Shown one piece after another: positions 21,781 to 22,794 of a stretch of DNA of 55,923 nucleotides. This DNA is from a virus. Its lineage: Duplodnaviria > Caudoviricetes. Numbering within the stretch: the first letter of the stretch is position 1; every line of letters begins with the position of its first letter. The translations under genes were made by a program, and so were the position numbers. Below the pieces are notes generated by a model. That model searched no databases. It was not told the origin of the DNA and was given only the letters and a program-made list of their open reading frames with translations. The stretch lies in the IMG/VR virus record IMGVR_UViG_3300033291_000001, positions 1 to 55,923 of that record, one strand, 5' to 3'.

Positions 21781-22794
21781 TCAAATCACTTTCTTTCTCT
21801 TGAATTTTGTACCAACCGCCTCAATACTAACCAGCCTTGACTTAACCTTTTTCCAACTGTTAACGGTTAGGTTAAATTTTTGCCTTAAATCGGAAGTTGA
21901 GATAGTTTCCCCGACTTTATAGTTAGAACAAATATATTCTTCTAACTTATTAGTTAAGTCATCAAAGTTAGAATTGTTTTTTCGTATCAGCACCTCATTA
22001 GTTAGAGCAATTGATTTATCCCAAAGCCTTTTTTTTGCAAGTTCGTCTTCGTTGCTTGGTGTTGAATCTTCTTCCGACCTAACCTGTAAATCGGTTGATA
22101 TAACCTGATTTGAATAGGTTAGGTTTTTAGACTTATCTATCTCAGCTTCCTTGTTTTTAACTGTTTTTATCCTAAACCCAACTCCTGTTTTAACCTCATT
22201 AGCTAGATTATCAGTTAGACTTAACTTATCATATTTCGTCTTAATTAATGTCCTAACTGGTTGAGTAAAAATCGCCCAACTCATATTAAGTAAAGTTTCA
22301 TTTATTCTTTTGTGTTTAATTCTCATAGTTAGATCAAAGCCAATCAATGGTAATTTAACTGCCATAATATCTAACAAAATACAAACTGACCAAGTAAAGA
22401 TAAAATTGGCAGTTAGATCAACTAACCAATTGTAAAAACTTAACGTCGATAAAAATGGAATCGCATTAAACAAATTTTCAATTGAGTTTATGTGTTCCTG
22501 TACGTAGTGACGATTTATTTCAAAAAACGTTATCGTGCCGACTATTGATACGATCATTAATATGTTTGATATTGTACTTACTAAGCTGTAATGTTGCGGT
22601 GTTTCTTTTGCAACATAGTGCTTTGTCATTGCAAGAAAAAATACTCCGAGTTGGATGACGACAAACATTCCAATCATTATGTACTTGACGCTTCCAGCAA
22701 ATGCCATGCTTAAAGGCTGTATGGTAGCATAAGTTGATACGATAGCACTTGCAATCCCTAGTAAAATAAATATTGTTGCTATTGCTTTCCTCAT
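21781..22794 (-). CDS. Multi-TM membrane protein with C-terminal wHTH-like domain (SpdB/DUF2637-like architecture)
   Basis: About 4 TM helices, charged linker, C-terminal YICSNYKVGETISTSDLRQKFNLTVNSWKKVK; ATG at 22794 after AAGGGG. Confidence 0.7.
   Translation of the reverse strand: MRKAIATIFILLGIASAIVSTYATIQPLSMAFAGSVKYIMIGMFVVIQLGVFFLAMTKHYVAKETPQHYSLVSTISNILMIVSIVGTITFFEINRHYVQEHINSIENLFNAIPFLSTLSFYNWLVDLTANFIFTWSVCILLDIMAVKLPLIGFDLTMRIKHKRINETLLNMSWAIFTQPVRTLIKTKYDKLSLTDNLANEVKTGVGFRIKTVKNKEAEIDKSKNLTYSNQVISTDLQVRSEEDSTPSNEDELAKKRLWDKSIALTNEVLIRKNNSNFDDLTNKLEEYICSNYKVGETISTSDLRQKFNLTVNSWKKVKSRLVSIEAVGTKFKRKKVI
21827..22427. repeat. Intragenic array of RGTTAG/CTAACY hexamers (13 exact copies)
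   Basis: Counted by eye at 21827,21865,21921,21942,21966,22000,22079,22117,22213,22253,22327,22411,22422. Confidence 0.75.

Follow-up and report, generated by a model that had tools for sequence, protein, structure and literature searches.

Why should the gene for one membrane protein of a tailed phage hold, within about 600 bp of its coding sequence, 13 exact copies of a six-letter word in both orientations? The locus lies in a virus record of 55,923 bp (IMG/VR IMGVR_UViG_3300033291_000001; Duplodnaviria, Caudoviricetes), all of which was analysed and which is called the window here. The gene in question, referred to below as the array gene, is an open reading frame (ORF) on the minus strand at 21781..22794 (ATG at 22794, stop codon at 21781-21783) that encodes 337 amino acids. 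The word is RGTTAG, or CTAACY when read on the other strand, and its copies occupy 21827..22427. The evidence described below argues strongly that this is an array selected at the level of the DNA and tied to the family of the array gene. That it acts in cis as a set of binding sites for a winged helix from the same gene module, most likely the one encoded by the gene itself, and that it would couple the phage DNA to a membrane translocation complex, is a reading based on analogy to which we assign about an even chance.

The array was delimited by counting exact matches and by shuffling codons. Eight copies are on the plus strand (starts 21865, 21921, 21966, 22000, 22117, 22213, 22327 and 22411) and five on the minus strand (starts 21827, 21942, 22079, 22253 and 22422). 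A preliminary description of this DNA, prepared from the sequence alone, had reported 13 exact RGTTAG/CTAACY hexamers in both orientations within about 600 bp, an expectation below one, and a 5′ part of the gene (22430-22794) free of exact copies. All three statements were confirmed: the 13 copies were recovered at 21827-22427, composition predicts 40.1 x 600 / 55923 = 0.43 copies per 600 bp, and RGTTAG does not occur between 22428 and 23577. The word is not enriched over the genome as a whole, because 43 copies are found on the two strands of the 55,923 bp and dinucleotide shuffles yield a mean of 40.1 (standard deviation 7.0). These copies are distributed unevenly, with 13 of the 43 in the 600 bp of the array, 10 in a gene that encodes a peptide repeat and 20 scattered. 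When all hexamers were scanned without a prior choice of word, the top clusters of the genome were GTTAGA and AGTTAG at 21921; the equivalent pentamer scan placed CTAAC/GTTAG first, with 14 of 79 copies in the 600 bp from 21827. Spacing between sites is irregular (11-96 bp) and their core measures 6-10 bp. Among near variants of RGTTAG only GTTAA (10 copies in 21800-22450 versus 2.1 expected) and GTTGG (4 versus 0.9) are enriched, and TGTTAG occurs once, at 22371. The enrichment of GTTAA agrees with the many one-mismatch variants mentioned in the preliminary description; RGTTGA, which was also listed there, has two mismatches with respect to RGTTAG rather than one (GTTGA, 5 copies).

Codon shuffling, which had been proposed as the control, did not reproduce the count. 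None of 20,000 shuffles reached 13 sites in any of three schemes: permutation of the gene's own synonymous codons (mean 3.76, maximum 11), resampling of codons from the usage of the whole window (mean 2.14, maximum 9) and permutation restricted to the C-terminal part (mean 4.43, maximum 11). Therefore, the protein sequence accounts for two to four sites and the remaining ones come from the choice of codons. The array is real and exceeds what the protein sequence and the codon usage would provide. A search of 20500-24000 against Rfam had no hit at E ≤ 0.1; the region is thus not accounted for by a known RNA.

The way in which the sites are laid over the reading frame points in the same direction. 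RGTTAG includes a stop codon in one frame per orientation, and the 13 sites fill all four of the orientation and frame combinations that remain. The coding strand has eight CTAACY, six of them in frame 0, where they encode Leu-Thr, and two in frame 1, together with five RGTTAG in frames 1 and 2. The dipeptide Leu-Thr is written as CTAACY in six of seven cases in the array gene versus nine of 63 when the 34 other ORFs with 150 or more amino acids are counted (binomial, 5e-5). With both orientations and every stop-free frame in use, and with codon shuffles falling short, the earlier proposal that the signal is in the DNA and that the protein is not itself repetitive was borne out; Tandem Repeats Finder detected nothing in 21500-23000, and the flanks of the sites in the window are unrelated to one another. 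Pausing at rare codons was rejected as a cause, since CTA-Leu could account for no more than six of the 13 sites and not for any that is reverse-oriented. A peptide repeat was also considered. It fits a second cluster of AGTTAG at 50056-50881, within a 1293-amino-acid ORF (48043-51924, minus strand) that has no PHROG match: the 11 AGTTAG sites of this ORF use a single frame and strand and encode A/S-V-S-T-S in a degenerate Ser/Thr/Ala-rich repeat. The RGTTAG array behaves in the opposite manner. Six sites of the second cluster read AGTTAG-Y-ACA and are identical to a 10-mer present in three relatives of the array gene (L003, L004 and L005, introduced below), probably by coincidence.

The product of the array gene has no Pfam (E ≤ 0.01), PHROG or PADLOC family, and the Pfam models GntR (PF00392), FtsK_4TM and FtsK_gamma do not match it. 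Hydropathy and AlphaFold2 predict an N-terminal membrane domain at residues 1-157 (22324..22794, minus strand), which is the best-conserved part of the family. Four Kyte-Doolittle segments of at least 1.6 are found at residues 4-22, 29-47, 75-93 and 123-141; the AlphaFold2 model has long helices at 2-31, 35-64, 66-94 and 121-157, and long helices reach residue 199. Residues 191-269 (21988..22224, minus strand) form a linker that is predicted to be disordered, with a predicted local distance difference test score (pLDDT) below 50 over 191-262 and 264-269. It varies in length and does not align between lineages. The C-terminal domain, residues 274-337 (21784..21975, minus strand), was modelled alone as three helices and a two-strand wing with a mean pLDDT of 71. 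The top five VIA matches of this model were all GntR-family regulators (Z 7.0-7.6), the best being 6az6_B with Z 7.6 and a root-mean-square deviation of 2.0 Å over 62 aligned residues. The top Foldseek rows were all GntR-type (E 0.3-1), and leads from the ESM Atlas, with feature scores of 0.81-0.82 and structural TM scores below 0.5, were all clusters of helix-turn-helix (HTH) or GntR type. The models thus support a winged-helix fold, at Z values too middling to establish membership in the GntR family. Hydropathy and models together agree with the previous view of the product as a membrane protein with a winged helix-turn-helix (wHTH). Three of the array sites fall on the code for the fourth membrane helix, one on the helix that follows, three to four on the linker and five to six on the helix preceding the winged helix and on the winged helix itself. 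About nine of the 13 are consequently outside the disordered linker, where they are made by codon choice and by changes at otherwise conserved residues, such as DLT in place of the DLL or DIM of relatives.

The array recurs in relatives of the gene. The family is small, with 17 homologues in a set of 5.8 billion proteins; in a set of 1.84 billion, 51 cluster representatives match at E ≤ 1e-3. DNA was obtained for six further family genes, of which those with AGTTAG clusters have about 44% protein identity. The word RGTTAG was fixed beforehand and compared with 5,000 codon shuffles per gene; the loci L006, which ends before the linker, and L007, which is on the same contig as L002, were excluded from the counts. 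L002 has 4 copies versus 0.82 expected (21 of 5,000 shuffles reach 4), L003 has 7 versus 1.84 (1 of 5,000 reaches 7), L005 has 6 versus 1.78 (9 of 5,000 reach 6) and L004 has 4 versus 1.45, a marginal result (154 of 5,000 reach 4). L003, L004 and L005 were counted as one lineage because their nucleotide identity is 73-87%. The core AGTTAG is then common to three lineages, those of the window, L002 and L003-L005, at about 55% nucleotide identity. In the relatives the sites lie within about 100 bp of linker-coding DNA that cannot be aligned, at positions that are not homologous to those in the window. The word is extended to AGTTAGYACA in L003-L005, where it encodes ELVQ in one frame and EVST in another and also occurs in reverse. 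In the 57,984-bp record of L002, 4 of 27 copies of AGTTAG fall in a 110-bp stretch of the array-gene homologue. Raw counts of hexamers per gene are dominated by A-rich words, and AGTTAG does not rank first in L002 or L004; the claim of replication rests on the pre-specified word and the codon shuffles.

A more distant subfamily carries arrays of a different word. RGTTAG is not enriched in L009 or L010. AGGACA occurs 19 times in the L009 gene (codon-shuffle mean 6.5), which holds 19 of the 20 copies in its 9.1-kb locus, and 17 times in the L010 gene (codon-shuffle mean about 6), which holds all 17 copies in its locus. These copies use three frames, encoding QDK, SGQ and DRT, and are oriented with the coding strand in 19 of 19 cases in L009 and 16 of 17 in L010. 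The longer word CAGGACA has 14 of its 18 copies in a 58.4-kb genome, and all 6 in a complete 61.5-kb genome, inside the gene. The array word is nearly unique to the locus in each genome and is switched between subfamilies. It had been suggested that homologues might carry their own hexamers, covarying with the recognition helix. Homologues do have their own arrays, and in L009 and L010 another word accompanies another helix, the third helix of the wHTH being different between the AGTTAG and AGGACA groups; the helices within the AGTTAG group also differ from one another, so the correspondence of word and helix is not strict. Parts of the L009 array consist of short tandem repeats with periods of 13-30 bp, and the L010 linker contains a perfect tandem of the seven-residue unit NLGQTNN in five to six copies. 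More distant members, available as proteins only, have long linkers packed with short lineage-specific peptide repeats, for example in the DTK/PDT, EGNK and LVTN lineages. We predict from these sequences that such peptide repeats are translated word arrays and, in particular, that the VSN/KLA repeats of P0026 would be AGTTAGC in two frames; scans for the DNA encoding P0026 and P0029 found none.

Tandem repeats of this kind raise the possibility that the arrays have no function and are low-complexity DNA generated by slippage in a tolerant linker, with a local codon bias added. The linkers of all members examined are long, variable and rich in short peptide repeats; the tandem periods in L009 and the perfect heptapeptide tandem in L010 are what slippage would leave, and a disordered linker places little constraint on the protein. 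Against this stand the window array itself, which has no tandem repeat, unrelated flanks, sites in both orientations and all allowed frames, and most of its sites beyond the linker, as well as the return of the core word at non-homologous positions in three lineages and its near absence elsewhere in each genome. We regard a functionless array as very unlikely.

The genes next to the array gene suggest what its function could be. The preliminary description had noted an FtsK-like neighbour and a second HTH protein, and both are present and syntenic in four lineages. The FtsK/SpoIIIE-like ATPase of the window (486 amino acids, 23312..24772, minus strand; PF01580 3.2e-17, phrog_1358 1.4e-33) is encoded by a gene that ends about 900 bp upstream of the array; PADLOC recognized only generic FtsK/HerA similarity. 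Between this gene and the array gene is that of a 148-amino-acid protein with a C-terminal HTH (22930..23376, minus strand). Its matches are weak: DUF7769 (2.4e-5) and HTH_36 (4.7e-4) in Pfam, both below the gathering scores, and phrog_428 (1.1e-4) and phrog_678 (1.4e-4), replication-initiator families matched through the generic HTH part only. Counterparts of this protein are found at the equivalent position in L002, L006 and L009. The order FtsK-like ATPase, HTH protein, array gene is observed in the window, L002, L006 (partial) and L009, and a PF01580-type ATPase is also beside the array gene in L002, L009 and L010. In L010 the ATPase gene is inverted yet adjacent, the two genes being divergent (1040-2785, minus strand, and 4001-5287, plus strand), and the array remains with the membrane-wHTH gene. 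The C-terminus of the L010 ATPase is weakly similar to the L009 HTH protein (30% identity over 50 amino acids, pairwise E 0.012), and the L010 gene seems, on this slight resemblance, to carry the HTH as a C-terminal fusion. Structure prediction of a complex between the window ATPase (residues 140-486) and the 148-amino-acid protein scored 0.60 (runs 0.66, 0.00 and 0.60; best control 0.00), with contacts agreeing by at least 30% and a partner pLDDT of at least 56. Calibration of the method gave passes for 58 of 80 solved complexes and for 2 of 110 mismatched pairs; 7 of the 80 passed with a score of 0.60 or lower, as did both of the mismatched pairs, and a pass near 0.60 is wrong more often than it is right for a pairing that is not already likely on other grounds. 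The prediction lends weak support to the idea that the two proteins may work together.

Four small ORFs of 77, 162, 79 and 130 amino acids (24777..26108, minus strand) lie upstream in the same strand block. Three of them have one strongly hydrophobic segment, and no Pfam family was found for the three that were scanned. At the other end, an inverted-repeat search identified a hairpin with a perfect 13-bp stem and an 11-nt loop at 21737..21773, directly after the stop codon of the array gene. It resembles a terminator and likely marks the end of the operon; a terminator scan did not list it because the loop limit of the scan is 8 nt.

Which protein would read the array? The first candidate is the winged helix of the array gene itself and the second is the 148-amino-acid HTH protein that accompanies the ATPase. 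The gene's own domain is favoured because the array stays with the array gene in every gene arrangement and the word changes where the domain changes. That the array is bound, by which protein and for what purpose is what we infer from this pattern. The array may also be functional with another reader or in another role: the reader could be a second wHTH encoded downstream, a ribbon-helix-helix-like protein or a host factor, and the array could act, for example, as an autoregulatory transcriptional roadblock. The downstream wHTH, about 400 bp away, belongs to a GIY-YIG nuclease that is split over two frames in the window (21059..21563, minus strand) and was recognized by comparison with an intact 154-amino-acid protein of L009 (5417-5881; Pfam GIY-YIG 3.7e-11), residues 1-73 of which align with one frame (59% identity) and residues 58-151 with another. 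Its wHTH is a paralogue of that of the array gene (36% identity over 45 amino acids, pairwise E 1e-8). The frame break, near 21340-21345, could reflect a pseudogene, an assembly error or a programmed frameshift. As a reader this domain is disfavoured because it is similar in the window and L009 although the arrays there use different words; in addition, among the downstream regions of L002, L005, L009 and L010 the GIY-YIG-wHTH gene is found in L009 only. Visual inspection suggests ribbon-helix-helix proteins for small ORFs located just downstream in the window (21526-21684, minus strand, 52 amino acids, no Pfam family) and in L002 (3427-3582, minus strand), and ribbon-helix-helix proteins bind arrays of short subsites in either orientation. 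A host factor would leave unexplained why the word changes alongside the gene's own domain. A regulatory role is compatible with the position of the array gene at the end of an operon closed by the hairpin, but RGTTAG does not cluster at any promoter-like intergenic region, its sole other cluster being the single-frame peptide repeat, and 13-19 sites over 400-600 bp far exceed what a roadblock needs. We consider a different reader or a regulatory role improbable.

If the gene's own winged helix is the reader, the following mechanism can be proposed. The 600-bp stretch would be a selected array of short putative protein-binding half-sites, 13 RGTTAG and about 10 GTTAA, in the stretch that encodes the final membrane helix, the linker predicted to be disordered and the winged helix at the C-terminus. 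Many membrane-anchored winged helices would occupy the only address in the genome that bears the word; their occupancy would hold the chromosome of the phage at the membrane, next to the FtsK-like motor, and the motor would then load on the fixed DNA or pump it. The layout would be that of an FtsK protein split in two, with the membrane domain, the linker and the word-reading wHTH in one polypeptide and the motor in another. DNA coding for a linker may be the cheapest place to write sites, and because the sites are inside the gene of their reader, the word and the reader could change together.

FtsK and SpoIIIE are anchored by four membrane helices and continue with a long low-complexity linker, a RecA-type motor and a wHTH specific for a short word (FtsK orienting polar sequences, KOPS, or SpoIIIE recognition sequences, SRS). 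The phage module would follow the same domain logic, distributed over two or three genes. It differs in that KOPS and SRS occur throughout the chromosome and show a strand bias, whereas the phage word is clustered at one locus; dispersal with strand polarity was not found for RGTTAG, which is clustered and has a genome total equal to the shuffle expectation. The array protein also lacks Pfam FtsK_4TM and FtsK_gamma, its best fold matches being GntR-type. Centromeres such as parC/ParR, tubC/TubR and the omega heptads similarly assemble many short sites in either orientation into one nucleoprotein handle, although their repeats are usually contiguous and intergenic and not, as here, within coding sequence. 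A partition NTPase of the ParA, ParM or TubZ type was not found among the 20 window proteins scanned with Pfam and the 20 scanned with PHROGs, a set in which small ORFs are incompletely covered, and a centromere in the strict sense is therefore unsupported. The p16.7 protein of phi29 is likewise an early membrane protein of a phage, ends in a DNA-binding domain and is believed to keep phage DNA at the membrane; it has a single membrane helix, binds without sequence specificity and has neither a site array nor an FtsK-like partner.

In terms of function, the closest described system is TraB, clt and SpdB2 of Streptomyces. The clt loci contain short direct and/or inverted repeats of 5-9 bp that are read by the C-terminal wHTH of the FtsK-like TraB, and one clt extends 16 bp into traA (PMC3583192). 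SpdB2 is described as a four-helix integral membrane protein that binds double-stranded DNA, interacts with TraB and has homologues in actinophages (PMC4447253). The likeness consists in the gene of an FtsK/SpoIIIE-family ATPase near a short, element-specific word in many copies, and both are found here, with 13 RGTTAG in the window, 4-7 in L002-L005 and 17-19 AGGACA in L009 and L010; a four-helix membrane protein and further small membrane proteins are also shared. The differences are several. The translocase TraB itself carries the wHTH, whereas the ATPase of the window has no Pfam HTH and an HTH is on the separate 148-amino-acid protein; the array of 13-19 copies lies inside the coding sequence of a membrane protein instead of beside tra; SpdB2 binds DNA non-specifically, unlike the phage membrane protein, whose wHTH looks sequence-specific; and the setting is a low-GC tailed phage and not an actinomycete plasmid. 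By this analogy the array would tether the genome to the membrane in a role like that of clt or of a centromere.

A replication origin inside the gene of its initiator, as in the lambda O/ori arrangement, would produce some of the same features. The sites would then be iteron-like and read by the gene's own wHTH or by the 148-amino-acid HTH protein, and replication would start at the membrane. In lambda O/ori the sites are in the linker-coding part of the gene of a DNA-binding protein, so that sites and reader can change together, and iterons and initiator specificity covary among lambdoid phages. The array likewise reaches over the linker-coding part of a gene with a DNA-binding domain, its word is nearly unique in each genome, and L010 has a primase-type gene about 2 kb downstream (Zn_ribbon_DnaG 4.3e-16). 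The PHROG matches of the 148-amino-acid protein to initiator families can be added, although they are weak and confined to the generic HTH part. On the other hand, sites of 6-10 bp spaced by 11-96 bp in mixed orientation, as in the window, are not regular iterons of about 20 bp, and a repeat search returned no long iteron family. The array protein differs from lambda O in having shorter and irregular sites, a C-terminal DNA-binding domain and a membrane-embedded body, and the protein conserved alongside it is an FtsK-like ATPase and not a helicase loader. An AT-rich unwinding element was not identified: GC content is 0.31-0.34 at 21-23 kb versus 0.30-0.44 over the genome, with no distinct AT-rich tract. 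Recognizable replication and recombination genes are 14-21 kb away on the opposite strand, in a block at 36.8-43.5 kb that PHROG and Pfam matches show to include a RecD/Dda-like helicase (36790-39021), an ERCC4 nuclease, a DnaG-type zinc ribbon (41131-41625) and an ERF recombinase (42780-43490). Furthermore, an inverted-repeat region at 33389-34368 is an alternative regulatory or origin candidate. Taking both sides into account, an origin at the array seems to us unlikely.

Several observations weigh against the proposal that the array is read by its own gene's winged helix and serves a membrane translocation complex. Up to four DNA-binding domains are encoded within 2 kb: the gene's own wHTH, the 148-amino-acid HTH protein, the GIY-YIG-linked wHTH and the 52-amino-acid ribbon-helix-helix-like protein. 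Covariation cannot single out the reader, because there are two word groups in about four lineages and the FtsK-associated HTH differs too. A rule of the same word with the same helix is not strict, since the recognition helices of the AGTTAG group are quite different. Orientation is mixed in the window (8 + 5) and nearly uniform in L009 and L010, which one common mechanism does not obviously predict. Slippage contributes to the growth of the arrays in L009 and L010, given the tandem repeats in both linkers. The window ATPase has no wHTH detected by Pfam and no hydrophobic segment of at least 1.6, the complex prediction for this ATPase and the HTH protein lends weak support, and the fold matches of the C-terminal domain are middling (Z below 8, Foldseek E above 0.1).

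As regards the phage, the record is a complete genome with direct terminal repeats. PHROG matches in the window include the small and large terminases, portal, head protease, major head protein, major tail protein and tape measure, and the phage is therefore a tailed one. Between about 36.5 and 13 kb the genes form a block on the minus strand. No close relative of the phage was found among 50,697 deposited phage records or in single genomes representing 185,579 prokaryotic species. For the array gene, near-DNA and protein searches of the same 50,697 records gave no match, nor did a single-protein scan of viral contigs, and a profile scan for the family over one genome each of 185,579 prokaryotic species also gave none; its relatives are thus known from metagenomes only. 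Distant relatives of the FtsK-like protein (24-29% identity) are mostly in Bacillus phages (153 of the 181 matching phage records), and the best genomic relative of the endolysin, at 43% identity, is in a Bacillota metagenome-assembled genome. These weak hints suggest that the virus is a low-GC tailed phage whose host probably belongs to the Bacillota. The endolysin (43911-44645, minus strand) combines an Amidase_3 domain with a C-terminal SPOR domain.

Other features of the genome were recorded. Among the proteins scanned, the sole ParB-like domain forms the N-terminal part of a fusion with a DNA methyltransferase at 31279-32568 (minus strand; phrog_67 1.1e-56, ParB-like phrog_4715 6.9e-9), and a similar ParB-like start is found in L002 at 7534-7797. 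A 719-amino-acid ORF without a Pfam or PHROG family (34369-36528, minus strand) is located beside a divergent promoter region. The non-coding kilobase at 33389-34368 contains two perfect long inverted repeats with arms of 25-26 nt and loops of 16 nt, one pairing 34090-34114 with 34131-34155 and the other 34287-34312 with 34329-34354. They have a 34-nt core in common, and extra copies of a 14-19 nt direct repeat are present at 34008, 34100 and 34298. This kilobase is a candidate operator, promoter or origin region.

Cis-acting loci made of short repeats and read by winged helices are a known kind of element. The novelty lies in the setting in a tailed phage, in the location of the array inside the coding sequence of its putative reader in every allowed frame, in a reader embedded in the membrane and in the change of word between subfamilies. 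Full-text searches of open-access PMC and bioRxiv on phage FtsK-like proteins and on the Streptomyces system brought up no paper that describes such an array in its title or abstract. A more far-reaching extension, which we consider rather unlikely, is that tailed phages of low-GC bacteria carry a self-addressed module for translocation of double-stranded DNA, clt-like in kind, in which an FtsK-like pump is split and a membrane subunit reads an array in its own gene; that the pump moves whole genomes across a septum, into a forespore or a neighbour in a chain, without virions; and that word and reader diversify together, preventing cross-talk among co-infecting relatives.

Many phages of spore-formers have annotated FtsK/SpoIIIE homologues, whose role is stated to be undetermined in a genome announcement (PMC3853048). 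The family described here gives a handle on that role, in the form of a conserved three-gene module with a candidate cis site that hardly occurs elsewhere in a given genome and is spelled differently from one subfamily to another. If the array serves for loading or tethering, the function of the phage FtsK-like pump becomes directly testable. The locus would then also be a clear case of protein-binding information overlaid on a coding sequence in all available frames, and the TraB/clt principle would extend from the plasmids of actinomycetes to tailed phages.

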